Shown: piece by piece, positions 5,828-64,000 of the stretch | How the letters are laid out: each line of letters opens with the position of its first letter | How positions within the stretch are numbered: the stretch's first letter is position 1 | Source of the DNA: a virus | Direction: 5' to 3' (one strand) | DNA: 64,000 nucleotides | Virus record (IMG/VR): IMGVR_UViG_3300036795_000116 | Coordinates: 5,318 to 69,317 of that record | Translations under genes and position numbers: made by a program | Notes under the pieces: model-generated | Databases searched by the model: none | Seen by the model: only the letters and a program-made list of their open reading frames with translations | What the model was told of the DNA's origin: nothing

Positions 5828-5890
5828 GCCCCCAAGCAGCCGGCGTCCTGGGTTAAACCCCCCGGACCTGGGGCGCCGGTGTTGTACTTC

Positions 5891-5965: not shown

Positions 5966-5966
5966 G

Positions 5967-6039: not shown

Positions 6040-6054
6040 GGCATCAGCGTAGCA

Positions 6055-6103
6055 TGTGTAGTGCCCTTGACACAGTGGGTTAGTCATGCGACAGTTGCAA
6101 GAG
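6055..6103 (+). promoter_or_regulatory. sigma70/HrdB-like promoter, copy 2
   Basis: TTGACA (6067-6072), 17 nt, GACAGT with upstream TG; near-duplicate of 851-899. Confidence 0.7.
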
Positions 6104-6136
6104 TCAAGCAACTCCCACTACAGAAACCGAGCGATC

Positions 6137-7192: not shown

Positions 7193-7260
7193 CCAAACCA
7201 AGTTGCTAGTCGTTTACATATAGCGCACACTTGTGCACCGAATCAGAGAGGAAGTTCGTG

Positions 7261-7554
7261 ATGTCCCCGCACTACACCGGCCATTGGAGGGAGTGGGTCG
7301 CCTGCTCCAACGAGGATCCGGAACTGTTCTTCCCGATCGCTGGCCGTGGCACCCCAGCCTACGCCGAGCAGGTCACCGAGGCCAAGTTCGTCTGCTCGTT
7401 CTGCCCCGTGCGCGAGCAGTGCCTGGAGTTCGCCCTGGAGCGCATCCAGACCGGGGTGGCCGGCGGCCTCGACGAGTACGAGCGGGCCGCTCTGCGCAAG
7501 GCTAGGGGGCAAGAAGCGCATCTCCCCAGTGAGCGCGTCCTGTCCACCCGATGA
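7261..7554 (+). CDS. whiB: WhiB-family Fe-S transcription factor
   Basis: W..AC..EDPELFFP, AKFVCSFCPVREQCLEFAL, GVAGG (canonical GVWGG), ER.AL. Confidence 0.92.
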   Translation: MSPHYTGHWREWVACSNEDPELFFPIAGRGTPAYAEQVTEAKFVCSFCPVREQCLEFALERIQTGVAGGLDEYERAALRKARGQEAHLPSERVLSTR

Positions 7555-7941
7555 CCCACTTACTGGAAGATCTTTAAAGGGAGGTTGCACGCGTGTCACC
7601 CACATATGGTGGTAGCGGCCACACTTCTGAGACGCTACTGTCAGCGACGCCCAAATCCGAGGGAGCCCAGACCACTGCCGACGCGGACTTCATGTACGTA
7701 ACCAGTCCGCGAGAGGCCCATGGTCGACGCACGCTATTACTACACGCCTGTCAGCTACCGGGACATCACCCGGTTCTACTACGTCAAATGCCGTACCGAG
7801 CTGCATCTACGGCGGCTCCGTCGTCGTGGGATCGAGAACAGAAGTGCCCCGGTTGTGGTGTCGACGCTCCCGCCGGTGCCGGTGCTCCCCCTCACACCAA
7901 GCATTGTCACTGGAAGTAGTAGACACCGCCCCTGAAGTGTG

Positions 7942-7991
7942 GGGTGGCGGGCACGGGGCTTAACACGAACGCGCTGGCCCACCCGCCACCC
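7942..7991. terminator. hairpin between convergent transcription units
   Basis: GGGTGGCGGG/CCCGCCACCC inverted repeat at the 3' end of the tRNA array. Confidence 0.6.
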
Positions 7992-7993
7992 TG

Positions 7994-8064
7994 CTCCCCG
8001 CCCAGGACTCGAACCTAGATAACCGACTCCAAAGGCCGGCATGCTACCATTGCATCACCGGGGA
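7994..8064 (-). tRNA. tRNA-Gln(TTG)
   Basis: Anticodon arm CCGGC-CTTTGGA-GTCGG; T-loop TTCGAGT; U1-A72. Confidence 0.88.
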
Positions 8065-8065
8065 C

Positions 8066-8141
8066 TGGCTGCCTCGCCAGGATTCGAACCTGAAATTCCG
8101 CGTCCAGAGCGCGACGTAGTTGCCAGTTACACCACGAGGCA
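8066..8141 (-). tRNA. tRNA-Gln(CTG)
   Basis: TCGCG-CTCTGGA-CGCGG; encoded CCA. Confidence 0.9.
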
Positions 8142-8152
8142 AAGAGTGTGCG

Positions 8153-8226
8153 TGCCCTAGGTGCGATTCGAACGCACGCCTGTACGGAGTTTGAGTCCGT
8201 TACCTCTACCGTTGGGTTACTAGGGC
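8153..8226 (-). tRNA. tRNA-Leu(CAA), short variable arm
   Basis: ACGGA-CTCAAAC-TCCGT; acceptor GCCCTAG/CTAGGGC-A. Confidence 0.88.
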
Positions 8227-8232
8227 CTAACG

Positions 8233-8305
8233 TGCACCTACCAGGAGTCGAACCTGGTGCTCGAAGTTCGTAGCCTCGCGTGGTAATCCGGTCCACTATA
8301 GGTGC
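8233..8305 (-). tRNA. tRNA-Arg(ACG)
   Basis: CGAGG-CTACGAA-CTTCG; acceptor GCACCTA/TAGGTGC. Confidence 0.88.
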
Positions 8306-8309
8306 TCGG

Positions 8310-8382
8310 TCGTCGGGGCTGGACTTGAACCAGCAACCCCCGGCTCTTCAGACCAGTGCTCTCCCAGTTGAGCTACCCGACG
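8310..8382 (-). tRNA. tRNA-Phe(GAA)
   Basis: CTGGT-CTGAAGA-GCCGG; acceptor CGTCGGG/CCCGACG-A. Confidence 0.88.
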
Positions 8383-8434
8383 ATTGTCCGAATGTCCTAA
8401 CCTAGCACTGAGGTAACGCTGTTAGGATAGGTAC

Positions 8435-8475
8435 GCCCCAGACCCTGGCGACCTTTGAACGTCAGGGCCTGGGGC
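8435..8475 (-). terminator. hairpin downstream of 8486-8791
   Basis: GCCCCAG.CCCTG.CG/CGTCAGGG.CTGGGGC inverted repeat. Confidence 0.55.
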
Positions 8476-8485
8476 ACCCCTTCAC

Positions 8486-8791
8486 CTAGTAGTCACGTCG
8501 CCCGTCGTGACGGTCATACCGGTCGTGCCTGTTGTACCGGTCGTGCCTGTCATGCCGACCGTACTTGTTGTGCCGATCGTGGCGGCTGTACCGGTCGTAC
8601 CGATCGTGGCGGCTGTACCGGTCGTGGCGGTCATCACCACGCCAACCGCCCGCCTTCACCAGGGCAACTGGCGCAACCGCGCTGGTCACCATGGTCGGCG
8701 CACTGGGTGCTGCGTTAGCCACCCCGCTGCTTCCCCCCACGAGCAGCGCCGTGCTGAGCAGCCCGGCTGTCAGCAACTTCGTGATTATCAT
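8486..8791 (-). CDS. secreted low-complexity peptide with (RHDRY)n-type repeats
   Basis: GAAGGGAG RBS; signal peptide ending VANA; C-terminal DRHDRYSRH repeats. Confidence 0.8.
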   Translation of the reverse strand: MIITKLLTAGLLSTALLVGGSSGVANAAPSAPTMVTSAVAPVALVKAGGWRGDDRHDRYSRHDRYDRYSRHDRHNKYGRHDRHDRYNRHDRYDRHDGRRDY

Positions 8792-8901
8792 CCCTGAACT
8801 CCCTTCAGTTGACTGCCAGGGAGCGCCGAAGTTACCTGAGGATCCTGCCAGGTACTGCCGCCAATCAGGGTGACCCCGAATGCTGGAGTTAGCTCCATTC
8901 G

Positions 8902-8971
8902 AGGCACTGGCGGGACTTGCACCCGCGTACACGGTTTTGCAGACCGCGTCGACCAGCTCGGTCACAGCGCC
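8902..8971 (-). tRNA. tRNA-Cys(GCA)
   Basis: GCGGT-CTGCAAA-ACCGT; U73; atypical T-loop TGCAAGT and short D-loop. Confidence 0.8.
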
Positions 8972-8980
8972 GTGCGTGCG

Positions 8981-9054
8981 TGCCCCCTGAGAGATTCGAA
9001 CTCATCACTGTCAGGTTCCTAAAACCTGTGCCTCTACCGTTGGGCTAAAGGGGC
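8981..9054 (-). tRNA. tRNA-Leu(TAG), short variable arm
   Basis: CAGGT-TTTAGGA-ACCTG; A73. Confidence 0.85.
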
Positions 9055-9057
9055 TTG

Positions 9058-9131
9058 CTGGCCAGGTAGGATTCGAACCTACAACATCCTCCTTAACAGG
9101 GAGGCGCTCTGCCGGATTGAGCTACAAGCCA
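9058..9131 (-). tRNA. tRNA-Asn(GTT)
   Basis: CCTCC-CTGTTAA-GGAGG; G73. Confidence 0.9.
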
Positions 9132-9147
9132 ATGTAATTGTTGTGCG

Positions 9148-9220
9148 TGCCGGTAGCTGGAATCGAACCAACCTATCACTGATTTACAGTCAGTTGCCTA
9201 CCCAGTCGAGCCTCACCGGC
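9148..9220 (-). tRNA. tRNA-Tyr(GTA), short variable arm
   Basis: ACTGA-CTGTAAA-TCAGT; variable region only GATAG. Confidence 0.8.
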
Positions 9221-9224
9221 GGAG

Positions 9225-9309
9225 CGGAAGCTGCAGGGATCGAACCTGCGCGGGTGTCACCCCGACTGCCATTTTCGAGACGGCTGCCTTACCTCTCGGC
9301 CAAGCTTCC
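9225..9309 (-). tRNA. tRNA-Ser(CGA)
   Basis: GCCGT-CTCGAAA-ATGGC; long variable arm; G73. Confidence 0.9.
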
Positions 9310-9696
9310 CCGTGGTGCGTAACCCGGACACTCCCGAGATTTCGCGTCCGTGAGGATCTTACCGCAGCTGGTGCAGGTGTGGACGTGCTTGCAGGAGTAG
9401 TACCACTCTCCGTTGCCGACGAACTGACGGAGCCGCTGCCCCTCGACGTGCTCCCAGCGGCCCTTCTGGAACCAGCCGCAGCGCCAGTGCTGAGGGTAGC
9501 GGTCCGCGTCGGGGCGAGCCTGGAAGTGCAGGGCCCACTTGTCTATCTTGAGCGTGGTGACGTGCTCGATCCCGACCTTCCCGCGGCACCAACGACGCCG
9601 GTCCTTGCGGGCACGGTGTACGGGCACCTCGGGAGCCAGGACGCGGGCTTCGTCGAGCTTCGGGCCGGCGTTCCACCCGTCATAGCTGTGTCCCAC
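9289..9696 (-). CDS. Cys/His-rich hypothetical protein inside the tRNA array
   Basis: GGAAGGAG RBS before GTG; CxH, CxxC; stop lies within tRNA-Ser. Confidence 0.65.
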   Translation of the reverse strand: MGHSYDGWNAGPKLDEARVLAPEVPVHRARKDRRRWCRGKVGIEHVTTLKIDKWALHFQARPDADRYPQHWRCGWFQKGRWEHVEGQRLRQFVGNGEWYYSCKHVHTCTSCGKILTDAKSRECPGYAPRGSLAER

Positions 9697-9714
9697 GATC
9701 TGCTCCTTCCGTTG

Positions 9715-9788
9715 CGGTACCGACGGGACTCGAACCCGCGACCTCCGCCGTGACAGGGCGGCGCTCTAACCAGCTGAGCTACGACACC
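9715..9788 (-). tRNA. tRNA-Asp(GTC)
   Basis: CCGCC-CTGTCAC-GGCGG; canonical D and T arms. Confidence 0.93.
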
Positions 9789-9789
9789 G

Positions 9790-9894
9790 TGGAGCATGCG
9801 CCAGGACTCGAACCTGGAACCTCCGGATTTTATACCGGCGCTCTACCGTATCCCCGGGCGTCCCCGGGCGGTGTTCCCCTTGAGCTACGCACGC
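9790..9894 (-). tRNA. 105-nt tRNA-like RNA with about 30-nt D-loop insertion and non-canonical anticodon arm
   Basis: Acceptor GCGTGCG/CGCATGC-T-CCA; perfect T arm CCAGG-TTCGAGT-CCTGG; D stem GCTC/GAGC encloses 38 nt; CCGG-TATAAAAT-CCGG. Confidence 0.75.
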
Positions 9895-9896
9895 AG

Positions 9897-9970
9897 TCGG
9901 CCATGCTGGAGTCGAACCAGCGGTCTTCTGCTCCCAAAGCAGACGGATTACCAAGCTTTCCCAATGGCCG
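9897..9970 (-). tRNA. tRNA-Pro(TGG)
   Basis: TCTGC-TTTGGGA-GCAGA; C1-G72, A73. Confidence 0.9.
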
Positions 9971-10481: not shown

Positions 10482-10861
10482 GACAGGACGTGCCGCCCGC
10501 CCCGGCTCACCGCGTCAGGCCCGATCGGCGCGGTGACCACGGTGCGCAGGTAGAACGCCACCACGGCGACCACGAAGGCCATGATTGAGCCCTGCAACTG
10601 AGGAGTCAGCTGGAAGCCGAAGGAGAGCGCGACGGCCAGCATGGCCTGCACGACACCCGCGATCAGAGGCGCGGCCTTCTCCGCGGACACCGAGAGGGCG
10701 GTCAGCACGCCGAGGAGGACGACGACCAGAGCGTTGAGCGCACCCTGCTCATCCACCGTGAAGCCGAGCGTCAGCGCCCCGATGAGCTGGATCAGGCCGG
10801 CGACGACGGCCGCGATCTGGGCGGTCTCACGGGCGATGTAGGCGAGAACCTTGTTGAACAT
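10478..10861 (-). CDS. holin-like 4-TM protein
   Basis: Internally duplicated TM pairs, R..VT.P C-terminal motif, near the endolysin. Confidence 0.75.
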   Translation of the reverse strand: MFNKVLAYIARETAQIAAVVAGLIQLIGALTLGFTVDEQGALNALVVVLLGVLTALSVSAEKAAPLIAGVVQAMLAVALSFGFQLTPQLQGSIMAFVVAVVAFYLRTVVTAPIGPDAVSRGGRHVLS

Positions 10862-11039
10862 GACGGATTCCTTTACCGCTTGGTCCAGAACTGCTCAACC
10901 CAGGGTTCCGAAGGGTTGCCTCGGCTAAAACGACGGACAGATCCGTCAGCGAAGTAGTAGGCGCGCTCCATGGACGGGTTCGGGTTGGACGAGGCCATGG
11001 TCTCGATGCGGATCGCGTCCTCGACCCCGAGCGGATGGA

Positions 11040-11195
11040 TCACCACCAGTGCCGTCGGTTGCCAACGGGGTGCCCGACGCCACCGAGCAGCAGGAGCACG
11101 AGGCCGACGACGAGCAGGATGACCCCGATGGTGTAGAAGATGGAGATGCCGAGCAGATAGCCCAGCAGCACGAGGATTACGCCAAGGACAATCAC
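11040..11195 (-). CDS. small membrane protein (DUF6131-like)
   Basis: MIVLGVILVLLG...IFYTIGVILLVVG...GHPVGNRRHWW; AAAGGAG RBS; absent from the ORF track. Confidence 0.75.
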   Translation of the reverse strand: MIVLGVILVLLGYLLGISIFYTIGVILLVVGLVLLLLGGVGHPVGNRRHWW

Positions 11196-11206
11196 GAGGG
11201 GCTCCT

Positions 11207-11508
11207 TTAGCTCCGGTAGTCCTGCCGGTTGTTCCAGGTCTTCGTCATGTCGTGACGGGCGCGCCCGATCTCAGCGGTCCATCGGCCCACGAAGAAACCG
11301 GGGACTGAGCCGGCGCCGAGCAGGAGGAAGAGCTGCAGGGTGGTCACGAATGGATCCCGCCTGAGCTGATGAACAGGGCGACGATGACCAGCAGAAGCCC
11401 GACCGGGGTCAGCAGGACGCGGTTGTAGGTCGCCACCGCGTTCCACAGGATGATGTCGAAGAGGACCAGGATGAACGCGATGACGAGGAGGATCATGTTG
11501 ATGCTCAC
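11207..11508 (-). other. two small membrane ORFs (11344-11508, 11207-11347)
   Basis: GTGA overlaps following the endolysin; hydrophobic. Confidence 0.55.
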
Positions 11509-12248
11509 GAGCCGCTCCTTTGCTGAAGCTTCTTCGTCGCGGTCTGCAGTTCGGCGATCGCCGCCGCCAATGCCACGAGCTGCACATTCGCCCGACGCAG
11601 ATAGTCGGTCGCGGTCAGGTCTTCATCGGTGCCGCCCGGCCATGTGGGCCAACCCGGCCAGTCCGTTCCTTGGGGTACCACCGTCGCCGAACCGCTGATG
11701 TATTGGTAGACGGCCGTGAGCATTGCGTCCTGCTCTGGAGTCAAGTCATCCTCCTGGATACCCTGGAGTCTCTGCTGCCACACCGCGTATTTGGCCATCG
11801 CGTCGTTTGCGTATGCCTCGGCGGCCGGACCACTGCCGTTGTAATGCACGAATCCTCCGCGCACGCCGTACCTGCGGATCAGCGCCTGAATGCCCCGGAA
11901 ACCGGAGCGCATGTTCGGGATGGGCAACCAGCAGCCGCCGAGTGAATCCGCCGAGTTCTGGTAGCCCGCAGACGTGCATTGCGCGGGGCCGACACCCTGG
12001 CGACCAATGCGCCCAGCCTGCACGGCGGTGCGATAGGCGAGGTAGCTGGCCTGGGTAACGACTGTGCCTTTGATGTAGGTGCCGCCGGTCGACACCCCAT
12101 CGGAGCCCCAGACGTTGCGGCCCCCGCTCTCTTTCTGAATGACCGTTGCCGCCACCGCGAGGTCGATGCCTTCTAACTGGGCGGCTTCCACGATTTCGCT
12201 GGCGAGGCCGAGTCCGTACATGCTCAGGACACTCGTCGCGCTCACCAC
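11505..12248 (-). CDS. endolysin, lysozyme/lytic-transglycosylase fold
   Basis: Catalytic-Glu motif IQKESGG, GVGPAQ, YNGSG; upstream of holin candidates. Confidence 0.8.
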   Translation of the reverse strand: MVSATSVLSMYGLGLASEIVEAAQLEGIDLAVAATVIQKESGGRNVWGSDGVSTGGTYIKGTVVTQASYLAYRTAVQAGRIGRQGVGPAQCTSAGYQNSADSLGGCWLPIPNMRSGFRGIQALIRRYGVRGGFVHYNGSGPAAEAYANDAMAKYAVWQQRLQGIQEDDLTPEQDAMLTAVYQYISGSATVVPQGTDWPGWPTWPGGTDEDLTATDYLRRANVQLVALAAAIAELQTATKKLQQRSGS

Positions 12249-53938: not shown

Positions 53939-54262
53939 ATGTGCCATCGTTGCCAGCCCCATCAGGGCTATGTGGTGGGCGCGGTGCTCGCGGTGGTGCC
54001 GTTCGTGGTCGTCGACATCTGGCTGGTGCAGGCCGGCCTCAACCCGTTCGTCGCGGTGGCCGCGCTCTTCGTCGTCGGCGTCGTCGGCTGGTGGGCCTGG
54101 GACCGACACCGCGGCGTCCGCTGGACCGAAAAGCCGCCTCCGTCGTCGGGCTCGGGGGGTGGGCGCTCGGTTGGTCCGTTAGGGTCGCCTAGGCCAAATG
54201 GGGGTCGCGGGGGTGGTAGCGGTCGACCGCGCTCACAGGCCTACTGGTCGAACCGACGGTGA
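53939..54262 (+). CDS. two-TM membrane protein
   Basis: Hydrophobic hairpin; follows the LuxR gene. Confidence 0.55.
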   Translation: MCHRCQPHQGYVVGAVLAVVPFVVVDIWLVQAGLNPFVAVAALFVVGVVGWWAWDRHRGVRWTEKPPPSSGSGGGRSVGPLGSPRPNGGRGGGSGRPRSQAYWSNRR

Positions 54263-54341
54263 TACGCTGACGACGGTTCCTTTGCGGGGAGCCAGTCCAG
54301 TAGTGGGTAGTTGGTGGGTTCCGTTGCCGCGGGGCTCACCA

Positions 54342-54456
54342 GGAGAACGGGTCCTTTTCGCGGGGGCCCGTTCTTTTATTTCGTGGTAACCTGGCCGAGC
54401 CCTTCACCGGGGGCGGGAGAACGGGTCCTCATTGGGTTGGGGCCCGTTCTTTTTAT
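54342..54456 (+). terminator. two tandem paralogous terminators
   Basis: GGAGAACGGGTCC..GGGCCCGTTCTTTT at 54342-54381 and 54416-54456. Confidence 0.7.
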
Positions 54457-54743
54457 GTCTTGGGTCGGCCGCAGTTCCCGCAGGCTTCGAAGTCCGCTGG
54501 CCGATGCTTCCAGGGGCGCCTGAACTCTTCTTCACCAGGCTGCCGACGCCAAACCCCGCGCCAGCGATGCCGGCCCACCAGGCAGAACGTGTAGGCCATC
54601 AGCTCGGGCTTACGACGGTAACGCCACGTCAGCGCCAGGTGGTTGCGGGTGCCGCCGTACAGCGACCTGCAGTCCGGGGTGCCAGGCCAGTGATCGAGCG
54701 GGTGAAACTGACTGAAATCGAGCTTGCGGGGTGGTTCGCTCAA
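54453..54743 (-). CDS. hypothetical protein with C..GRH.W..CxxC motif
   Basis: ORF track; Cys motif. Confidence 0.55.
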   Translation of the reverse strand: MSEPPRKLDFSQFHPLDHWPGTPDCRSLYGGTRNHLALTWRYRRKPELMAYTFCLVGRHRWRGVWRRQPGEEEFRRPWKHRPADFEACGNCGRPKT

Positions 54744-54769
54744 AGTGGGTGGCCCGTGTCGGGGGCTAG

Positions 54770-54885
54770 TCGGTGCGGGGAGTGGCCGGACCCTGCTCCT
54801 CGGTAGTGAACAGGGGCCGGCTCACCCTCGGTGCGGGGAGTGGCCGGACCCTGCTCGCTGATAACAAGCAGGGGCCAGCTCACCC
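54770..54885. repeat. 2 x 58-nt tandem hairpin repeat with variable loop
   Basis: TCGGTGCGGGGAGTGGCCGGACCCTGCTC-N12-CAGGGGCCRGCTCACCC twice. Confidence 0.85.
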
Positions 54886-55282
54886 CTTGGAGACCACTCT
54901 CCTTGACGAAGAGGCCGCCAGCGTATCAGTCGAGGAGTTGGCCCTGCTCCTGCTTCGGGGGTTTCAGCAGCTCGGCCAGCATCTCCCGCTGCACCTCGCT
55001 GAGCCCACAGCCTTGCTCTAGCGACGGCCCGCCCCGGGGACCCAGGATGAAGATGCCCTTCGCGGACGCGGATTCGATGAGGTCGCAACCTTCGCAGCAG
55101 TTATGACGATTCATGATCAACTTTCACTCCCGCAAAAATTTTTGCCGCGAAAAAATCGCTCTGACCAGGGGCTTTCGCCCACACTAGCGCGAGCGCCAAT
55201 TTCGAGCGGCGCTTACCATGATCAACTTCTCGCTCCGGAAAAAATCTCGCCCACACAAACGCTGGTGAACCCGTGCCCCAAA

Positions 55283-55430
55283 TGTCACACCTGTGTGACA
55301 CTTAGGGGGGGATGTGTCACAGTTGATCATCACCCGTTTGGTCGTCACCCACTTGGCCTAGTTCACCCACATGCGAGTTGATCATCACCCATATGCGTCA
55401 CCCGTTTGGCGGTACCCATCACCCGTTTGC
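55283..55430. repeat. palindrome plus TCACCC iteron-like cluster
   Basis: TGTCACAC-CT-GTGTGACA (55283-55300); TCACCC at 55330, 55345, 55363, 55385, 55398, 55419; AGTTGATCATCACCC twice. Confidence 0.75.
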
Positions 55431-56047
55431 GGCGCTAGACTGGCCGTAGGCCAGTTCGACAAGATCAACAACGAGAGGAGAGGTGGGCCGTGCGCGGGCG
55501 TGAGCCTGCTCACTTTCCGGGAAAGCCCCCGCGGGAGAGTATGCCCAAAGGACGTCGCTACCCGGCCCCGTGCTGTCAGTCGCGGGATGATGATCTCACC
55601 GCCGAGTAAAGAGAGGCTTAGCCTCCGCGCGGCTGGTAGCTCAGGCTACCCCGCGTGACTCCCCGGAGTCCGTTGAGCGTCCGGAACGCCGCGACGCGAG
55701 CCCACCTGCAACGGTGGCACGGTGCCGGGTCGACCCTAACTCGGGCTGTCCACGGAGACGTGGGCGATAGGTGATCCAGATCTCATCCATGCCTCAATGA
55801 TCCAGACGGGTAGATCAAATACGTTCAAGATCCAAATACGTTTGAAGATCAACTATGCCACGTGCGAGAGGATGATGATCATGAAGACTACGTCACTACA
55901 GATTGTCCATCGCCGTGGCTCCCAGCTATGGGATCATGCGCAGAGTAGTCACTCTGCCGGGCCGGTCACGGCCACCCTAGCGAAACGGTCACGTCGGCAA
56001 CGGCGAGCCGCTCGGGTGAGTACCCCCCGATAGCAAGATCACCCGTT

Positions 56048-56088
56048 GGTCACGGGCATGATCCTTTACTGTGATCATGCCCGTGACC
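56048..56088 (-). terminator. 16-bp inverted repeat downstream of 56127-56660
   Basis: GGTCACGGGCATGATC/GATCATGCCCGTGACC. Confidence 0.7.
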
Positions 56089-56126
56089 TGCGGTGTATGC
56101 GAATCGACAGATACATGTACAGCGCG

Positions 56127-56660
56127 CTAGACACCTAGCGCAGGCAGCTTGACTCCAGAAGCGGCCGCTTGCGCCTCTAGTTGCGTCTGTAGGTCACGAA
56201 TGGCTTGGTCGACAGTGGATTCGGTGATGACCGAAACCTCCTGTCGCACGGGCGCATTCAGCCCTAGCAAGCGTGCCCGCTGATCGGAGATCTTCAACAT
56301 CCGGTCGATAGCCCAGTGTTGATTGGTTGATCCACTTGCCAGGCATTGCTGCCAGATAGCGGCCTGTAGTTGGTCTAGTCGATCTAGTTCAACCTGTCGA
56401 GCATCGTCGATCGACTCTCGCGGGTACTCACGCATGTACACCATGAAACTCTTGTGAGCATGCGAGCTATCCGAGTAGCCAAGGGCACGCGCGATAGCGT
56501 CCCAGCTCACACCAGCACGGCGCATATCTACGGCGCGCTGATCGCGCTCTCGCCTGGCAATCACCTCGGGTGCGGACGGTGAGTCGATCCGCCGCGGCCG
56601 TCGCTTACCACTCTGCGGAGTCGGAAGCGCAGTTGCGCGGTTAGGCCCCTGATCAGGCAC
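56127..56660 (-). CDS. terminase small subunit-like HTH protein
   Basis: AVDMRRAGVSWDAIARALGY HTH; ELDRLDQLQ..W; AIDR.LKI..RARLLGL.AP pattern typical of actinophage TerS. Confidence 0.75.
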   Translation of the reverse strand: MPDQGPNRATALPTPQSGKRRPRRIDSPSAPEVIARRERDQRAVDMRRAGVSWDAIARALGYSDSSHAHKSFMVYMREYPRESIDDARQVELDRLDQLQAAIWQQCLASGSTNQHWAIDRMLKISDQRARLLGLNAPVRQEVSVITESTVDQAIRDLQTQLEAQAAASGVKLPALGV

Positions 56661-56754
56661 GTTGTGACCTCCCTAAGGGTTGTAGGTCGCACCCAAGATT
56701 TCCGGACACACTGCCCGGATAGCACGATCAGCACCTACGAACGGAAAAACGATC

Positions 56755-57029
56755 ATGACCTCTGCAACTAGCTCGCGGACGTTCTACAGCGACGATGACT
56801 CGATCCCGGTCACCGACGCCGCGGTGGATACGTACAACGTCAGTCAGGCCAGGCCCGATGAGGATGACATTCGGCTAGGCGTACTCGGCCAGGTCGAAAC
56901 CGCGCATGCTGAGTTCTACCGGAACCACTGATGATCACCGACAGAGAAAATAGGTACATGATCGCGGGCAGTTTCGCCCTGTTGATCTTGATCTGGGTGA
57001 TCTTGTTTAGCTTCTGTCCTTGGTACTGA
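56755..57029 (+). other. first cassette: two tiny ORFs (56755-56931; 56931-57029 membrane peptide)
   Basis: GGAAAAACGATCATG start; TGATG coupling; second stop falls in repeat copy 1. Confidence 0.65.
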
Positions 57030-57110
57030 GAGCGCTAGCAGAGCGGCTGGTGGTGAGTCCAGCCGTTCGATAGTCCACTCAGGACTACCCGCACAACGTT
57101 AGGAACGATC

Positions 57111-57329
57111 ATGCCAAGTATCAGCGCTAGCTTGCACGTGTACGCCGGTGACGCGGTTGCGGTGCGCGGCTCGACAGTTGACTCAGACAGGGTCACGGTG
57201 CAAGTCGGTGAATACGGTGAAGTGAGCAGCCATATCTACCTGGATCGAACGTCCGCCGTCCGAATCGCACAAAGCATTCTGGCGTTCTACGAAATGCCAG
57301 GTGGAGTGACCTACAGCGACTCTGAGTGA
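57111..57329 (+). CDS. cassette hypothetical protein
   Basis: Bounded by repeats 1 and 2. Confidence 0.8.
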   Translation: MPSISASLHVYAGDAVAVRGSTVDSDRVTVQVGEYGEVSSHIYLDRTSAVRIAQSILAFYEMPGGVTYSDSE

Positions 57330-57407
57330 GCTAGTCGACCAGCCGGAATGCGAACGGCTGGTCTGTAGTCCACTCAGGACTAGCCCCACCAATGAACGGA
57401 CACGATC

Positions 57408-57826
57408 ATGCTTGAAACGACGCTGGAAACAATCGACGTTCGTGACTTTGCGGTCACGGTATGGATCATGACAGGAGATCTCACCGGCGCTCTGATCACC
57501 GAGGCGCGTGGTTGGCTAAGCGACTGCTACTGGGACGACATGGAAGCGGACGAAATCGCCGAACTGTCGAGCATCACCGTTCAGCGCGCGATCGCACAGC
57601 ACTACGACGGCGGTATCGGCCAGTTCGTATCGGACGGTAGTTGATCATGGACCCCGACGCAAACCTCGCCGAGCAACTCGAAATCGCACGTGAAATGCAG
57701 GACCTAGACGATGTTGACTTGCCGGTTAGTCAGGATGACGCACAACGCCTGGCAGAGCTAGTCATCGCGTTGAACGAATGGCTAGCCAAGGGTGGTTACC
57801 CGCCGAAAGCCTGGCAACGTAACTGA
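57408..57826 (+). other. cassette with two acidic ORFs (57408-57644; 57647-57826)
   Basis: Between repeats 2 and 3; MDPDANL..L..W...GG..P..W pattern in the second. Confidence 0.75.
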
Positions 57827-57907
57827 GTGATCTAGCAGAGCGGCTGGTGGTGAGTCCAGCCGTTCGATAGTCCACTCAGGACTAACCGCACAACGTTAGG
57901 AACGATC

Positions 57908-58174
57908 ATGCATGTCTCACATGAACTTGACGTCTGCTCTGATTGCCGGCAGCTGATTGCCAACGGAGACATTGAGGACGGTACCGATACCGGAGAGCGC
58001 GTCGCCGCGGCGCAAGTACAGATTTGGGGTCCACTCGCCTGGCACATGGTGCTGAGTGGGACCGAGGACGAACCGCGATTCATGACCTCGGAATGCGACG
58101 GTTGCGGCGAGACTGCTCACGGTGATCGGTGGTACGCGTCCATTATCGAGAATGGCGATTCTGTCATCGCCTGA
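57908..58174 (+). CDS. cassette protein, CxxC..CxxC
   Basis: CSDC and CDGC..GDR; between repeats 3 and 4. Confidence 0.8.
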   Translation: MHVSHELDVCSDCRQLIANGDIEDGTDTGERVAAAQVQIWGPLAWHMVLSGTEDEPRFMTSECDGCGETAHGDRWYASIIENGDSVIA

Positions 58175-58257
58175 CTGAGAGAGCTAGCAGAGCGGCCGGT
58201 GGTGAGTCCGACCGTTCGATAGTCCACTCAGGACTAAGCCAACGTAGGGAAACGATC

Positions 58258-58515
58258 ATGCGTAGCGTGGAATTCAAGATCAAAGGCAACCCGGACACGT
58301 ACCTGCTACCCGTGGCCGACGATGTCACCGTATACAGCGCGATGACAGAGGTACTGTCGATCATGGGTCACGAGTGGGCGGACGTGATGCCCGGTCACGA
58401 CTTCAAGATCATCGACCCTAGCCCGTGCCAGTTCTGCTCACAAGCTTCGGGCCCCGACGCGTACATGCGTAAACCCATATGTGCGAGTTGCCTGGCCGCA
58501 CGTGAGACTGACTGA
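58258..58515 (+). CDS. cassette protein, C-terminal CxxC..CxxC
   Basis: Start at GATCATG after repeat 4. Confidence 0.8.
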   Translation: MRSVEFKIKGNPDTYLLPVADDVTVYSAMTEVLSIMGHEWADVMPGHDFKIIDPSPCQFCSQASGPDAYMRKPICASCLAARETD

Positions 58516-58598
58516 GTGATCTAGCAGAGCGGCCGGTGGTGAGTCCGGCCGTTCGATAGTCCACTCAGGACTAACCGCACAACTGTTAGGAAACGATC

Positions 58599-59120
58599 AT
58601 GAGTGAGCCGCTCTACACATTCCCTGCACTCACAGAGGCCGACATCACGGCGGTTAAGGGTGCACTCACAACGCTCACGGATTCCAACCTGGCCAACCTG
58701 GCCACACTCGCCACCGGTGAATCGCCACTCTATGGCCTGATTGGTGAGGAGATGGAACGCCGCGGCTACGAAGATCGAAAGCTCGCCGATGAGGCGAGAG
58801 ACCGTCGCCGCGAGCTGTACGCGGGTCGCGCACTATTGCGCGGTGAAATCAGACTGCAATGGGACAGCGGCGACATCAAGGCAAGCGCGCTGTCCCCCGA
58901 ATTCGATCTGTGCGAGGTGATGACCTTTCTAGAGATCGACGTACCGCCCGAGGTCGGATACTCGCAGGGCTGGATAGGTGAGCCTGACAGCGAATGGTCA
59001 CAAGATCTCATCCTCTGGCACGCGGGTGATCTGATCGACGGTGACGACATGATCTATTGGGTGCGCGTGCTCGATAGGTATATGGATGTGTGCGTGCGCG
59101 GCACGGAGCGCGACTACTGA
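58599..59120 (+). CDS. cassette acidic hypothetical protein
   Basis: Between repeats 5 and 6. Confidence 0.8.
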   Translation: MSEPLYTFPALTEADITAVKGALTTLTDSNLANLATLATGESPLYGLIGEEMERRGYEDRKLADEARDRRRELYAGRALLRGEIRLQWDSGDIKASALSPEFDLCEVMTFLEIDVPPEVGYSQGWIGEPDSEWSQDLILWHAGDLIDGDDMIYWVRVLDRYMDVCVRGTERDY

Positions 59121-59201
59121 GAGAGCTAGCAGAGCGGCCGGTGGTGAGTCCGGCCGTTCGATAGTCCACTCAGGACTAAGCCCCAGCCAAGGGAATTGAT
59201 C

Positions 59202-59594
59202 ATGACAACTGCACTGCAAGAGTCTGTCCTGATGACCGAGCTACGCGCGGTAGGTGGGTTTACGTTCAACCCGCATACGTCGCGGCTGGTCGACTATGGC
59301 AGCGCCACCGGATACATGATCGCGGTTCCGGGTACCGAACGCATCCTCGGATTCGGCGGTATGAGTTCCGCTGAATTCGATCAGGCGTTCTATTCGGCCG
59401 TACGTGATGCCGAACTGTCCGATTACACATTCGTAGGTGGCTGGTATTCCAGCGATCGGAATGTGTACATGATCGAACTGTCAGAGCTGCACGACGTCAC
59501 GCGTCGCCAGGCGGTACGCCTCGGAATCGAGCGCGGGCAGGAAGCAATTTTCGACATGCGCGGCGAGGTCATCAATCTGAAAGTGAGTGTCTGA
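59202..59594 (+). CDS. conserved phage protein (GGFT..GYM..GGW..Q.AIFD family)
   Basis: Recurrent phage motif set; function not established. Confidence 0.8.
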   Translation: MTTALQESVLMTELRAVGGFTFNPHTSRLVDYGSATGYMIAVPGTERILGFGGMSSAEFDQAFYSAVRDAELSDYTFVGGWYSSDRNVYMIELSELHDVTRRQAVRLGIERGQEAIFDMRGEVINLKVSV

Positions 59595-59920
59595 TGTTCC
59601 TGAATGAGTACGAAATCGACGACTACCGTCACCAATACCGCGATCATGCAGTGCTCGGGCCCGCTACCGCGACGCTGTCCGCGCTTGTGGAGGCAGTGAA
59701 CGCGAATTCGGACGGGTGGCCCTACTGGCAGAAGCCCAACCGCGCCGCGCGCAAGCTACAGGAATTCATCCGGGGTGACTGGCCTGCCAGCCGCTTTGAT
59801 GACGAGCGCAAGGACGCGACACCCGCGCTACTCCGGCAGGCCTACGGACCCTTGCGAGCATTCCGGACCCGTTGGGGTGTCCAGTTCATGATCACCGAGG
59901 TATCAGGCAAGGGGAAATGA
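59594..59920 (+). CDS. cassette protein (NSDGWPYW motif)
   Basis: TGATG coupling. Confidence 0.8.
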   Translation: MFLNEYEIDDYRHQYRDHAVLGPATATLSALVEAVNANSDGWPYWQKPNRAARKLQEFIRGDWPASRFDDERKDATPALLRQAYGPLRAFRTRWGVQFMITEVSGKGK

Positions 59921-60120
59921 TCATGACCGTAACCAACGTCAAGTTTCAGCTACACATCAACACTGGCAACGCCGCGGTTGCAGACGAGCCGTTCATCGCC
60001 GTCGCCGAACAATTGGAGGCAGCGGCGGCCAGACTTCGTGACTACTTCGCAGACGGCACGATGCGGGACGCCAATGGCCAACCAATCGGCAATTGGTACC
60101 TCAGCACTCTCTCTGAGTGA
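59917..60120 (+). CDS. cassette protein (I.T.NAA..D.NG..IG.W motif)
   Basis: ATGA overlap; stop in repeat 7. Confidence 0.8.
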   Translation: MIMTVTNVKFQLHINTGNAAVADEPFIAVAEQLEAAAARLRDYFADGTMRDANGQPIGNWYLSTLSE

Positions 60121-60196
60121 GCTAGCAGAGCTACCGGTGGTGAGTCCGGTAGTTCAATAGTCCACTCAGGACTAGCCCCAGCCACGTTAGGACCGA

Positions 60197-60811
60197 ATGA
60201 TGATCCCAACAAAAGCGGACGATGAGACGCAAGAACTCTATGTCCGCAATATCGTCACGCGGTGGAATGCCGCGACGCCCGAGCAGATCGCAGTCGGGCG
60301 CAATTGGTACTACTGCGCCAATGAACTAGCGCAGAAGATCGCGCCCACCACCCGCGTAGGTGCCGGAGTGCTCGCGGCGTTGTCCCCTCAGAAGTCCTGG
60401 CAGGCCAACGTCAAGATCGCAAAGGCAACGTTCGCCTCGGGTGCCGCACGCGGCCAGGTAGGCAACGCCTGCAAGAAAGCGGATGACATCCTGTCCGGTA
60501 AAGATCCACTCACGGTGCTGCCCAAGGGTAGTAAGACGTGGCACTTTTACCGGTGCATCGTCGATCCGTCAGACTCCGAAGCGGTAGTGATCGACCGTCA
60601 CGCGCACGACATCGCGGCGGATGAGATCTACGGCGCGGCAGACCGAGGACTCAGCAATCCGAATAGGTACCACACACTCGCCGAAGCCTACCGGCGAGCC
60701 GCTGAACTACTCGGCGAGATCCCGAGTGTTGTGCAGGCGGTCACCTGGACAGTGCAGGTTGACGCAACCGAGCATCTCCCGTATCGCGCGGGCAGGCGCC
60801 CGAAAGCGTAA
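60197..60811 (+). CDS. HhH-GPD DNA-glycosylase-like phage protein (DUF7178-like)
   Basis: G..WY, AALSP..W..N, K...FY, VVIDRHA, QAVTW. Confidence 0.65.
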   Translation: MMIPTKADDETQELYVRNIVTRWNAATPEQIAVGRNWYYCANELAQKIAPTTRVGAGVLAALSPQKSWQANVKIAKATFASGAARGQVGNACKKADDILSGKDPLTVLPKGSKTWHFYRCIVDPSDSEAVVIDRHAHDIAADEIYGAADRGLSNPNRYHTLAEAYRRAAELLGEIPSVVQAVTWTVQVDATEHLPYRAGRRPKA

Positions 60812-60925
60812 GATAGGAGGCTCGGACATGCCCGGATTCTGAATCACACAGCGGCCGGTAGGGAATGCGACCCTATCGAGCCGCGGGCGATTCAGCCCAC
60901 TAGCCCCAGCCAAGTTAGGAACATC

Positions 60926-61306
60926 ATGTCTGAAACCGAATTCGACCTGACCGTGTTCACCGAGGAAGACATCGCACGATGGGACAGTGTGGATCTTCGC
61001 CGGTGGGCGGCCAACCTGGACCTGTACAACAGGAAGACCGACGTTGCAACATTCCGACTCTCGTCCGAGGTGATCGGTACCGCGGGCGCACTGACCGCGA
61101 TCGACAAGCTAGTCAACGTGCTCAAAGTTGCCTACGCGGACCGCGAGCCCGACGTGACGAACGCCTACGGCAGTCAGATCGAAGTCAAGGTCTGGGAGAC
61201 CGACGAGGGGCTGCGGACCAGCTTGAAGTACAGGCTGCGCCGTGACCTCGAAGCCAAGGTGAAGGAGGAAATCAGCAACGAATTCGGCACCTACGCGACT
61301 ACCTGA
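60926..61306 (+). CDS. cassette hypothetical protein
   Basis: Between repeats 8 and 9. Confidence 0.8.
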   Translation: MSETEFDLTVFTEEDIARWDSVDLRRWAANLDLYNRKTDVATFRLSSEVIGTAGALTAIDKLVNVLKVAYADREPDVTNAYGSQIEVKVWETDEGLRTSLKYRLRRDLEAKVKEEISNEFGTYATT

Positions 61307-61389
61307 GTGATCTAGCAGAGCGGCCAGTGGTGAGTCTGGCCGTTCGATAGTCCACTCAGGACTAGCCCCAGCCACGTTAGGAAACGATC

Positions 61390-62108
61390 ATGGGCGAGAA
61401 CGATTTCGAACTACCGGACTGTGAGTGCAATGCGTGCTCACCAGACCCCGATGCGATCACGGTGCCCGTAGGGCTCTACATGATCAAGAACCGCAACGGC
61501 GCGGAAGAGCGCTATCACATCGGCGAGTACGGCTCGGTCACAGAGGTTTTGGGTGATCAATTCCAGCTGGTCACCGTCGAGCTGGATCGAGAGTTGATCT
61601 TGCTCCGGATCGCCACCGCGCTCGGGCGCGCCTGATGAGCCGCAAGCCAAAGGTCGGGACCGCTTATCCAGCGGACCGCTACGCGGCACCCGAGGAAAGG
61701 ATCATGGAGGTCAGCCACGAACTGGGTGGCTGTCTCATCTCGGTCAGGCCAGTGAACGACCGACTGTTGATCGAGATCTACCGGGCCGATGACACGATCG
61801 ACGTCAGGGGGCCAGGCGGACGTCAGGAAGCCCAACGGGCAACACTCGCCTGGACAGGTGACAACCCCGACGAGCCGCTCGATCAGAACGCGGACTCGCT
61901 CGCGGTGCCGCACGGATTCTGGGCCATCGGGATCGACACCATGACCAACATGTGGACCGTCGATCTCTATGAGATCCCGAACATCGAGACGCCCGGCGTC
62001 GTGATCGACGCGCTCGCACTGCCCGACCAGCCCACCGAGGCACTAGCCAAGGACGCCGCCCAGCGGACGGAGGAATGGCTGCTGAAGAAGATCATGCGCG
62101 CTCACTGA
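61390..62108 (+). other. cassette with two ORFs (61390-61635; 61635-62108)
   Basis: TGATG coupling; between repeats 9 and 10. Confidence 0.75.
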
Positions 62109-62188
62109 GTGACCTAGCAGAGCGGCCGGTGGTGAGTCCGGCCGTTCGATAGTCCACTCAGGACATGGAACAACGTTAGGAAACGATC

Positions 62189-62616
62189 ATGAAGTACAAC
62201 GTACTGACACGAGTCGTCTCGATCGTCGAGGCCGACTCACCAGCGGAAGCGCGCACCAAGGCGGAAGATCAAATTACCCGTCTGCTCGGCGACCCTGACG
62301 AGAACCTGGCCGAGGTCTACCGAGAGAAGGACCGCCCCGGCGATGTTCAGGAAGTGGATTGATGAAGATCACCCAGACGTTCTACTGCCGTGGCAACGAT
62401 TCCGGGCCCTACGTAGACGCGCACTACTACAGCGATTGGGAGACCGCAAAGGAAGCGGCCGATGAGAACGGAGAGTGTGTGTATGAGGTAACCGGAACGC
62501 TTGACCCGGATACAGCAAAACTGCTTGACGATGTTCAGGAAGTGGAGGCGTATTGCAACCACGACCCGGCGGCAGTAGTCAACGGGCGTTGTGAGTGCGG
62601 TGCCGTAATCAACTGA
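62189..62616 (+). other. cassette with two ORFs (62189-62362; 62362-62616)
   Basis: VEADS..EA motif; TGATG coupling; between repeats 10 and 11. Confidence 0.75.
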
Positions 62617-62702
62617 GTGACCTAGCAGAGCGGCCGGTGGTGAGTCCGGCCGTTCGATAGTCCACTCAGGACTAGCCCCAGCCCATCGAGAGAAGTGATC
62701 AT

Positions 62703-63863
62703 GTGAAGGAGTACCCACTGCCAGACCGGGACCCCGGTGAAGATCTACTGAATGAGACCCGCGCATTCGTGCGGCGATTCTGGGCGCCCCCGAGTGAGGT
62801 TGCTCTGGACGCGTTCACGTTGTGGCTGGTCCACACCCACGCGGTGAATGATGACCGCCTAGTGTTCGAAACCTCCCCGCGTATGGGGCTGTTCTCGATC
62901 GGTCCGGCGTCGGGCAAGTCCACCGCGCTGGAGATGTTGGAATTGCTGTGTGGTCGCGGCAAGCGCATTGCTGACCCGACCGCGCCCGCATTGATGGGGC
63001 TGCTCAGTCACGAGCGAGCAACAATCCTCATTGATGAGCTGGACACCCTGATGGGTTCCGGTGCAGGTGGGCGTTCCACCCGGACGATCATGCTTGAGGG
63101 TTACTCCGAAGGCGGCACGATCGCACGCGGTACGCAGGTGCGCGGCTACACGGAAGTTTCGTGTTTCGCGCCTATGGCGTTCGCGGGTATGCGGCAGAAC
63201 TTCATCTCTAACCCGAGGCTCGATGCACTACGTACCCGGACAATCATGCTGCTCTGTAAGCCGCGTGGTCCTGGTCAGGTCGTCGAGAGCTACCGTCGCC
63301 GGCTGCACTCTGGTCAGGCGCGGGCGCTGAATGCGGCCCTGGTCAAGTGGGGCTCACGCAATGCCAACACGCTGTCTGACTGCTGGCCGGAACCCCCGGA
63401 CGGTATCGAAGATCGCGCGGCGGAACTGTGGGAGCCACTGCTCGCCATTGGTGAGGTCGTCGGCGGTACGTGGGCTGAACGAGCCCGCAACGCCTGCCGG
63501 GTAATCGCGCTCGGCGAACCGGAAGAAGACGATGAGGAGCCCGACACTCCGGTGGAGATGTTGCTGGCCGATATGGGCCAGATCTTCATGGGTGAAGAGC
63601 GGTTGGCAACACGAACCATCGTGGAGCGACTGCTACTGCTACCCGGCTCAGCATGGAAGCGGTTCCCGAACATGATCGCGGCGGGTAAGGAGATTGCCGC
63701 GATGTTGGAGCCGCGCGGTGTCGCGCCCCGACCGGTCAAGCTCGACGGCACCACGGTCCGGGGTTATGACAGGGCAGATCTCGAAGCGGCCGGCATGCCT
63801 GTGCTGGACAACATCACGGAAGGAGGCCCGTCCAGCGAAGAGCTAGCGGAACTCCCGATCTGA
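62703..63863 (+). CDS. DUF3631-type P-loop replication protein
   Basis: LW..HTH, TSPR, Walker A GPASGKST, Walker B TILIDE, DRAAELWEPLLAI, RGY.R.DL. Confidence 0.85.
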   Translation: MKEYPLPDRDPGEDLLNETRAFVRRFWAPPSEVALDAFTLWLVHTHAVNDDRLVFETSPRMGLFSIGPASGKSTALEMLELLCGRGKRIADPTAPALMGLLSHERATILIDELDTLMGSGAGGRSTRTIMLEGYSEGGTIARGTQVRGYTEVSCFAPMAFAGMRQNFISNPRLDALRTRTIMLLCKPRGPGQVVESYRRRLHSGQARALNAALVKWGSRNANTLSDCWPEPPDGIEDRAAELWEPLLAIGEVVGGTWAERARNACRVIALGEPEEDDEEPDTPVEMLLADMGQIFMGEERLATRTIVERLLLLPGSAWKRFPNMIAAGKEIAAMLEPRGVAPRPVKLDGTTVRGYDRADLEAAGMPVLDNITEGGPSSEELAELPI

Positions 63864-63874
63864 GACCAAGATCA

Positions 63875-63947
63875 GGTTACAGGTCGCGGAGAGTAACCAC
63901 CGTTTGTGCTGGTCAGAGCGTTGATCCAGTTACGGGTTACGGGTTAC
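63875..63947. repeat. GGTTAC/GTAACC repeats downstream of DUF3631 gene
   Basis: GGTTAC 63875, GTAACC 63893, GTTACGGGTTACGGGTTAC 63929-63947. Confidence 0.65.
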
Positions 63948-64000
63948 GTTTGCGTTAGTCGCGCGCGATACCAACTGCATGTACAGTTCACTGCACAACG

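Follow-up and report, generated by a model that had tools for sequence, protein, structure and literature searches.

An array of small genes at the right end of a soil phage record was found to be punctuated by eleven copies of a structured module, which starts at the stop codon of one gene and leads into the ribosome-binding site of the next. The DNA that we analyzed (the window, 64,000 nt) covers bases 5318-69317 of a linear 69,317-nt IMG/VR virus record, IMGVR_UViG_3300036795_000116, a fragment estimated to be 66% complete. The modules keep their base pairing while their sequence changes, and in related phages the same intergenic slots are occupied by type II hammerhead ribozymes. Arguing largely by analogy with these ribozymes, we see an even chance that the modules are cis-acting mRNA punctuation of one long early transcript that is cut by a host RNase.

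A repeated, covarying fold between small genes

Ten of the modules are nearly identical and one (e8) is divergent. All of them lie on the gene strand between 57026 and 62674, and none was found elsewhere in the 69-kb record. A 15-mer core, TAGTCCACTCAGGAC, occurred 10 times in the window, always on the plus strand (the shuffle mean was 1.6, and 10 was reached in 0 of 100 shuffles), and the whole 69,317-nt record contained 10 forward and 0 reverse matches. A repeat search of the window returned a 102-nt family with nine copies and a 26-nt family with ten, the latter including the divergent copy at 60847. When the ten similar copies were aligned, the mean column identity was 92%, and columns 1-57 corresponded to the hairpin closed by its outer helix, with one gap in copy 2; this agrees with the initial annotation, made from the letters alone, which had described elements of 57 nt and one of 56. 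A covariance model built from the ten copies returned only those ten when the whole record was scanned, at 75-98 bits, with 25-33 bits for their reverse strands; in a separate scoring of both strands the minus strand had 18-33 bits.

The fold is an irregular hairpin of 56-57 nt with 19-22 bp in the window's 11 copies. Its closing helix, P1 (5-7 bp), holds the UGA stop codon and reads CUGAGUG/CACUCAG in the window type, so that the module ends appear in the DNA as CTGAGTG/CACTCAG and variants. Two small internal loops and a 3-bp helix, CUA/UAG, lie between P1 and the apical helix P2 (9-10 bp). A second hairpin, P3, pairs UAGUCC with GGACUA (6 bp) around the loop ACUCA, which is itself the 3' strand of P1. 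Because no nucleotide separates the 3' strand of P1 from that of P3, the two helices are mutually exclusive in full; read from this geometry, formation of P3 would require an open P1 or the loss of the P1 5' strand. Downstream of P3 comes a linker of about 25 nt, which carries the ribosome-binding site and, at GAUCAUG, the start of the following gene. Hairpin, second hairpin strand, linker, ribosome-binding site and GATCATG together make a conserved unit of about 90-100 nt. The array and its modules are as follows.

56755-63863, plus strand: array, 18 small genes grouped into 12 units with 1-3 genes each (open reading frame (ORF) list, domain search)
57026-57087, plus strand: e1, hairpin 57026-57082 (P1 CTGAG/CTCAG, P2) and 3' strand of P3; the stop of a 32-aa gene (57027-57029) lies inside P1
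57322-57382, plus strand: e2, 56-nt hairpin, P2 wholly different in sequence with pairing kept; the gene stop is the second TGA, 57327-57329
57823-57884, plus strand: e3 (folding, alignment)
58175-58236, plus strand: e4, one P2 mismatch
58512-58573, plus strand: e5 (folding, alignment, energies)
58574-58601, plus strand: example of the layout that follows a module (linker, ribosome-binding site, GATCATG start)
59117-59178, plus strand: e6 (folding, alignment)
60113-60174, plus strand: e7, P2 variant GCTACC/GGTAGT, directly upstream of the DUF7178 gene
60815-60842, plus strand: AGGAGG (60815-60820) and 4-codon mini-ORF (ATG 60828 to TGA 60842) upstream of e8
60839-60898, plus strand: e8, divergent type, P1 CTGAATC/GATTCAG, P3 GGGC/GCCC
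61303-61364, plus strand: e9, P2 variant GGCCAG/CTGGCC
62105-62164, plus strand: e10, P3 of 4 bp only
62613-62674, plus strand: e11, GATCATG kept after the module, with the gene start at an overlapping GTG, 62703

The upstream TGA was confirmed to lie within the first 8 nt of ten copies and, at e4, directly in front of the element (58172-58174); of the ten, eight use the first TGA, whereas e2 and e7 use the second. One of the eight is e8, where the large upstream DUF7178 gene ends earlier, at TAA 60809-60811, and the stop inside P1 (TGA 60840-60842) is supplied by the mini-ORF, whose frame is part of the ORF 60621..60842. Among the array genes without a following module, UGA is the stop in 7 of 8, so UGA is the usual stop in any case. 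The distance from element to start codon, first given as 28-32 nt, had to be corrected to 26-33 nt after the hairpin. Linker, ribosome-binding site and start follow in this layout after all 11 modules, the linker often being AGCCCCAGCCA, and GATCATG itself is present after 9 of 11. This motif had 46 matches in the window against 7.4 expected (0 of 100 shuffles), most densely at 55100-63700, and it frames most start codons of the array, including those of genes without a preceding module. The standard intergenic order of stop codon, fold, linker, ribosome-binding site and start bears out the proposal of a plug-in expression unit.

In minimum-energy predictions the long hairpin was formed by 9 of 11 copies, e1 and e8 adopting P2 plus P3, and the folding z-score was -3.3 or lower in 8 of 11. 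Energies were computed for 22 of 27 elements from the window and related phages, the window's 11 included. In these 22 the long form has 19-24 bp, the total length through P3 is 56-65 nt, and the long form is more stable than the P2-plus-P3 form by about 2-10 kcal/mol in 21.

Covariation supports P1 and P2, the evidence for P3 being weaker. In the ten similar copies, compensatory changes were found at 5 of 10 P2 pairs (7 cells), a score seen in 0 of 500 shuffles, and slid controls were only 26-40% paired; in 15 copies from three phages, both sides had changed at 6 of 10 pairs (18 cells). The four P2 variants quoted in the initial annotation are all present, and copy 2 adds a fifth, ACCAGCCG/CGGCTGGT. 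For P1, 97.2% of 108 cells were paired in 16 elements of five phages, compared with 12-38% in slid controls, and 3 of 7 pairs had changed on both sides across these phages (20 cells; 0 of 500 shuffles equal). The compensatory changes in P2 and P1 thus uphold the view that the structure is under selection. P3 is invariant within the window type except for G-U and unpaired cells; scored in a single register across types, 84.4% and 67.2% of its cells were paired, the main types being one column out of register. Each P3 type is a perfect 4-6-bp helix, and one copy in the relative L164 (L164a) carries a double change from GGGC/GCCC to GGAC/GUCC relative to a sister copy that is 91% identical. A G-U pair occupies P2 position 3 in 9 of 10 copies. 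The G-U pairs and the far better score of the model on the gene strand point to a module that acts as RNA rather than DNA. The sequence types share no unpaired nucleotide; they differ at the junctions and in the P2 loop alike.

No Rfam family matched the module, in line with the initial annotation. An Rfam scan of 54000-64000 with E up to 1 gave 0 matches, and a scan of 116 nt with E up to 10 gave only a miRNA and two antitoxin models at 10-16 bits. U-tract terminators were absent from the modules; the scan gave two terminator-like sites, both on the minus strand and neither at a module. On the gene strand of 54500-64000, a scan for the sigma-70 consensus only found 0 sigma-70-like promoters, against 3.2 expected in shuffles. 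Two candidate pairings were rejected: a hepatitis delta virus-like nested fold, whose required second helix (CUAG with CUAG) showed no covariation and is missing in e10, and a pairing in which the strand set free by the long hairpin would mask the ribosome-binding site, which was inconsistent among copies.

Structural descriptors were unspecific in this G+C-rich DNA: a free P1/P2/P3 descriptor matched the plus strand of the window 239 times, and a stop-anchored one gave 224 plus-strand and 251 minus-strand matches over 1.79 Mb of related loci. Element sets were therefore taken from repeat families and model matches. The architecture was present in 29 of 33 repeat-family elements, compared with 108 of 660 shuffles; in about six of the 33, the automatic helix pick gave a spurious alternative to the helices read by eye, and a MAFFT alignment with misplaced L163 elements was excluded from the counts.

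Related phages: ribozymes in the same slots and genes in other orders

Megablast of the array against 50,697 phage records gave no match. An exact scan of a viral contig collection for TAGTCCACTCAGGAC gave 35 stretches with one match each, which is the chance level, and genome contigs gave at least 119 stretches, again with single chance matches. The 14-mer GGGCGGTTCAGCCC gave 119 stretches in an exact scan, with more than one match only in the L164 and L165 contigs. In an observation apart from the phages, many exact matches of TAGTCCACTCAGGAC (L044-L162) were in Pseudonocardiaceae genomes, often at gene ends with a TAG stop, and L155 carried two similar copies ahead of a start codon; these could be chance matches plus orthologous sites, or a host motif.

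Relatives were obtained by protein searches with the DUF3631 and DUF7178 products of the array, which gave L163, L164 and L165 and then 125 further loci. Arrays of the same architecture built from other sequences were found in L163, L164, L165, L285 and L318. Their P1 types are CUGAACC/GGUUCAG, CUGAAUC/GAUUCAG, CUGAUCG/CGAUCAG, CUGAGCG/CGCUCAG, GUGAGU/ACUCAC and, once, CUAAG/CUUAG, and the P3 types are GGGC/GCCC, GGAC/GUCC, UGUCC/GGACA, CGGGU/ACCCG and GGGU/GCCC. The two sets mix freely; at L165:15837, for example, the window's P1 is combined with a GGGC P3. The sequence type of e8 is the dominant one in L164 and L285, and one P1 stop in L285 is UAA, paired with UUA. GATCATG also frames start codons in L164, L165, L285, L318 and L336.

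A k-mer screen of the DUF7178 loci brought out repeats containing CUGAUGAG and CGAAAC. Rfam identified arrays of type II hammerheads on the gene strand, scoring above the gathering threshold, in L336 (9), L326 (10) and L288 (6), 25 in total. The cultured Streptomyces phage Caelum (L410, NC_054666) carries 5 type II hammerheads between 1398 and 6971, which are unannotated in its record; the 30-aa coding sequence gp79 (3277-3369) is doubtful because a hammerhead, 3291-3355, lies beneath it. Arrays of 5-10 type II hammerheads thus mark the right-end operon in cultured Streptomyces phages and in many metagenomic relatives (Caelum, L288, L326, L336 and about 50 other DUF7178 loci). Over the 1.79 Mb of loci, a hammerhead-like pattern matched 264 times on the gene strand and 3 times on the opposite strand. 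In L336, the A of the upstream TGA is the first nucleotide of 8 of 9 hammerheads, and all 9 are followed by a ribosome-binding site.

The slot just upstream of DUF7178 was compared in 125 loci: 30 held a hammerhead, 4 a window-like module (the window, L164, L165 and L380) and 89 something else, and 2 were near a contig end. A control position inside the DUF7178 gene gave 0 of 125. The junction between DUF7178 and a 126-aa gene is likewise occupied by e8 in the window and by a hammerhead in L336. The window module thus takes up a ribozyme slot without being a ribozyme itself. Hammerhead covariance models (RF02276 and its clan) gave no match to the modules at the gathering score. The hammerhead blocks are CUGAnGA and GAAA next to stems, according to PMC10085705. 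The window type reads CUGAGUGA or CUGAGAG, other types read CUGAACC, CUGAAUC or CUGAUCG, and no stem-adjacent GAAA was seen; a known or permuted hammerhead was rejected since both blocks are absent from most module types.

Further repeated folds, none with an Rfam match, were seen in the intergenic slots of other DUF7178 phages: a UUCG-tetraloop hairpin plus a long hairpin in L289 (7552-9180), long hairpins of about 12-18 bp in L318 (4850-13700), and a small hairpin beside the ribosome-binding site in L333 (7531-9862). Short tandem repeats that look iteron-like separate the DUF3631 gene from the module ahead of DUF7178: a 19-nt unit is repeated about four and a half times in L164 (9810-9904), and L165 has a related unit (about 9850-9910). 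Repeats with a 61-nt period in 38-52 copies, which look like CRISPR arrays, were seen in DUF7178-bearing Streptomyces contigs (from L386 3360, L388 430 and L391 3786 onward).

The modules are also the joints of cassette exchange. L422, a 1220-nt contig from a close relative (73-93% nucleotide identity), contains three window-type modules in the order end of g57647, module, a new 70-aa gene absent from the window, module, g59923 homologue, module, g58599 homologue. At nucleotide resolution, all breaks in homology fall between the start of a module and the next ATG. The three L422 modules all carry the P2 variant that is unique to e7 in the window, which suggests homogenization within each genome. 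In two soil runs from another study, contigs pass directly from the end of an e10-like module into the start of g59594 (62191 to 59595); in two runs, e11 together with the end of its upstream gene is replaced by 84 other letters. Joints from 57314 to 58512/62613 and from 57911 to 60160/61350, with 28-39 matching letters on one side, were ambiguous because modules repeat, and they were not used.

Of 16 array proteins queried, 6 had a homologue in the 128 related loci and 10 had none. Genes shared with relatives follow the order 173-aa, DUF7178, 126-aa, DUF3631 in the window; 126-aa, 173-aa, DUF7178 in L285; and DUF3631, DUF7178, a recombinase-like gene, a helix-turn-helix (HTH) gene, 126-aa in L164. 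The order also differs in L336. Tyrosine recombinases (PF00589) had 0 matches in the 69-kb record, which is a 66% complete fragment, with a control of 14 of 14 genomes; shuffling is for this reason attributed to homologous exchange, probably between the ~90-nt modules. The part of the initial annotation that expected shuffling therefore stands, with gene order not identical among relatives (L422, L164, L285, L336) and breaks at modules in L422, whereas a site-specific system like that of attC found no support. As separate observations, the L164 array contains a small tyrosine-recombinase-like gene (10736-11311, plus) and an HTH homologue (11320-11790, minus), and an HTH homologue also lies at 5355-5930 (minus) in L163.

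Two genes bear on the setting of the array.

60197-60811, plus strand: DUF7178 gene, the marker for finding relatives (domain and protein searches)
56127-56660, minus strand: 177-aa HTH gene, divergent from the array (domain and protein searches)

The array starts at 56755, just past the divergent HTH gene, and forms the right end of the record, its last gene being DUF3631 and the contig end lying 137 nt beyond. In cultured Streptomyces phages and mycobacteriophages of about 50 kb, the DUF7178 gene is near the right end on the reverse strand, and from this position we read the array as the probable start of an early operon. In public records the relatives of the 177-aa HTH protein are annotated variously as terminase small subunit, 'Rnase E' or HTH, and its gene behaves like a movable minus-strand cassette found at different places of the array in relatives. 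In the window and three relatives, the DNA ahead of the array contains clusters of TGATCA-containing repeats as well as a 21-nt inverted repeat, and in L163 and L164 a conserved gtaagcttaggg stretch follows the repeat region, which could be an operator, origin or packaging region. Elsewhere in the window we noted a cluster of 14 tRNA genes (5891-9970, minus strand) and a 58-nt unit in two tandem copies that are 84% identical, each with an internal hairpin (54770-54885). The coordinates of the TGATCA repeats and the 21-nt inverted repeat are:

55100-55430 and 56043-56093 in the window
3290-3420 in L163
5910-6100 in L164
6404-6588 in L165

Proposed function and rival explanations

The punctuation reading draws on an irregular helix of two turns with no conserved core, on the absence of promoters and U-tract terminators, and on the hammerhead analogy. 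In this proposal, a host endoribonuclease would cut at or beside the fold and so divide the early message into gene-sized mRNAs. Our best guess for the enzyme is a double-strand-specific one of the RNase III type, with RNase E acting in the C-rich linker as the alternative; the 69-kb phage record contains no RNase III gene. The upstream fragment would then be capped at its 3' end by P2 and the downstream fragment at its 5' end by P3, and each cistron would receive the same self-contained leader, its translation start insulated from the upstream gene. The analysis shows the fold with its strand, covariation and position, the equivalence of slots with hammerheads and the shuffling at modules; we infer the cleavage, the enzyme and the two protective roles, and the module would be the enzyme-dependent counterpart of the type II hammerheads of relatives. 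The ~90-nt module is the only sequence common to otherwise unrelated genes, so it would also serve as recombination homology through which genes move as cassettes. Given the hammerheads in the same slots, we take RNA processing or insulation as the primary role and recombination as a likely by-product of repeated homology.

Several observations weigh against this proposal. No cleavage motif is conserved among the modules, and the formal support for P3 is weaker than that for P1. Some modules in L164 and L285 are preceded by TATACT, a -10-like sequence, so that they would form the 5' end of a primary transcript and have no upstream cistron to cut off. Moreover, punctuation makes no use of the pairing of the stop codon in P1, the exclusivity of P1 and P3, or the mini-ORF of e8, which together hint at an involvement of translation.

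Intercistronic hairpins such as repetitive extragenic palindromic (REP) elements offer a precedent for a module that is never cut. As a structural spacer it would block 3'-exonucleases, weakly attenuate transcription and keep upstream RNA off the next ribosome-binding site. We hold this to be possible, well short of an even chance: it fits the stable folds directly 3' of stop codons, the identical leader ahead of every gene and the missing cleavage motif, and the promoter-proximal copies of L164 and L285 would become 5' stabilizers. Yet it leaves P3 unexplained, and the self-cleaving ribozymes in the same slots of relatives argue that cutting matters. The modules also have no U-tract, which mycobacterial RNA polymerase is reported to need for intrinsic termination (PMC3993855). 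Doubtful, in our judgment, is the broader idea that the module is a new RNA processing device that replaced hammerheads, whether as a new class of self-cleaver that needs no protein or as a bistable switch between P1 and P3 decided by the ribosome. Taken by itself the switch, in which termination at the UGA would open P1, let P3 form and couple the fate of the junction to upstream translation, appears unlikely. A translated frame does end inside P1 at 10 of 11 window modules, and one codon earlier at e4; the stop of e8 comes from the 4-codon mini-ORF, which has an AGGAGG to itself; 24 of the 29 repeat-family elements with the architecture (33 examined) have a stop triplet in the 5' strand of P1; and P1 and P3, though exclusive, each keep pairing across sequence types. 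Against this, some modules in L164, L165 and L285 lie 5-50 nt past the stop or past a putative promoter, the freed strand has no consistent pairing to the ribosome-binding site, and UGA is the usual stop with or without a module. The hammerheads of L336 abut the stop as well, so that the stop position may be mere compaction. For the self-cleaver one can cite the hammerhead slots that the modules occupy, the competing or pseudoknot-like pairings in the fold and the lack of an Rfam match; genomic association in such slots is the logic by which other ribozyme classes were found. We nevertheless rate it very unlikely, as no unpaired nucleotide is conserved among types, the hammerhead blocks are absent from most of them, and a plain two-turn helix looks like the substrate of a protein enzyme.

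Each element is an imperfect palindrome at a gene end, all are in one orientation, the fold is kept while the sequence varies and cassette order differs among relatives, and the L164 array holds the recombinase-like gene mentioned above, a candidate by reading. Even so, there is very little chance that attC-like site-specific recombination is the primary function: the record, itself a fragment, has no PF00589 match, G-U pairs and strand asymmetry favor RNA, hammerheads in the same slots cannot be recombination sites, and the L422 breaks fall anywhere from the module start to the ATG, as homologous exchange predicts. Operator sites, with stoperators as the analogue, would have the P3 palindrome bound as DNA or RNA by a phage or host regulator. 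All 10 window-type copies agree exactly in the P3 region while the P2 loop is variable, and several Pseudonocardiaceae genomes have the 15-mer close to gene ends, but two or three P3 types coexist in one genome (the window, L164, L165), P3 contains G-U pairs, and with about 1100 chance 15-mer matches expected in 596 Gb the genome matches may be noise; we regard this as scarcely probable.

Phage early operons rich in small genes without a known function are where anti-defence and host-takeover genes accumulate, and how such genes achieve even expression and easy exchange is poorly understood in actinophages. The module represents an RNA family absent from Rfam, a candidate new processing signal and a candidate compact, portable intercistronic insulator for high-G+C hosts.

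Comparison with known systems

Integron attC sites are imperfect palindromes at the 3' end of promoterless cassettes, with a fold that is more conserved than the sequence. The modules resemble them in size, palindromic form, position at gene 3' ends and conservation of fold over sequence, but differ in that the record has no integrase, the pairs include the G-U type of RNA with a strand bias, the ribosome-binding sites lie within the repeat and the setting is a phage operon. In phage T7, RNase III processing hairpins lie between early genes. Like these sites, the modules are irregular hairpins of about 20 bp (two turns; 19-24 bp in 22 elements) with internal loops between early cistrons; unlike them, they have a stop codon in the closing helix, a conserved and exclusive second hairpin, near-identical copies and a 90-nt unit, and their cleavage by RNase III is putative.

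T4-type PeSL (promoter-early stem-loop) elements combine a sigma-70-like promoter with a terminator stem-loop, as described by Arbiol et al. 2010 (PMC2839356). Like the modules, they are small regulatory repeats placed between non-essential genes whose function is unknown, and recombination between copies shuffles the genes, so that L422 is an actinophage counterpart of PeSL shuffling. The modules, in contrast, have 0 sigma-70-like promoters and no U-tract terminators and lie inside one operon. The start-associated sequence (SAS) and extended SAS (ESAS) of Cluster K mycobacteriophages (Pope et al. 2011, PMC3203893) are also found in actinophages, with non-structural genes only and in one orientation. 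In both systems an imperfect inverted repeat, whose spacer varies, is placed just ahead of a conserved sequence at the start and precedes genes of several families; the function of ESAS is itself unknown, and the module differs in that its fold reaches back to the upstream stop codon. The 13-nt SAS GGGATAGGAGCCC had one match in the window, with 2 mismatches and in a tRNA region; 1.8 were expected by chance, and 85 of 100 shuffles did as well.

The module is thus known in kind, given intercistronic processing and regulatory repeats, ribozyme arrays, PeSL cassettes and ESAS repeats, while Rfam lacks both the family and its bistable architecture; the initial suggestion of a new system holds for the RNA family and not for a new category. 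As far as we found, neither the modules nor the hammerhead arrays of actinophages have been described, though the supplementary lists of PMC3088659 and PMC10085705 might hold them and subscription journals were thinly covered.

The closest comparison is with the clustered hammerheads of Perreault et al. 2011 (PMC3088659). These flank prophage genes, polycistronic RNAs of ~2 kb were cut in vitro, and long transcripts were proposed to be processed to gene-length mRNAs. The modules share with these hammerheads the gene strand, the place at or next to the upstream stop with the ribosome-binding site of the next gene behind it, and the presumed role of turning a long phage transcript into gene-sized mRNAs. 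They differ in having no hammerhead core and in forming one long hairpin with an alternative small hairpin instead of a three-way junction, and their cleavage, if any, probably needs a protein enzyme. Hairpin modules in some phages and hammerheads in the same slots of others therefore make a natural experiment on the purpose of ribozyme arrays.

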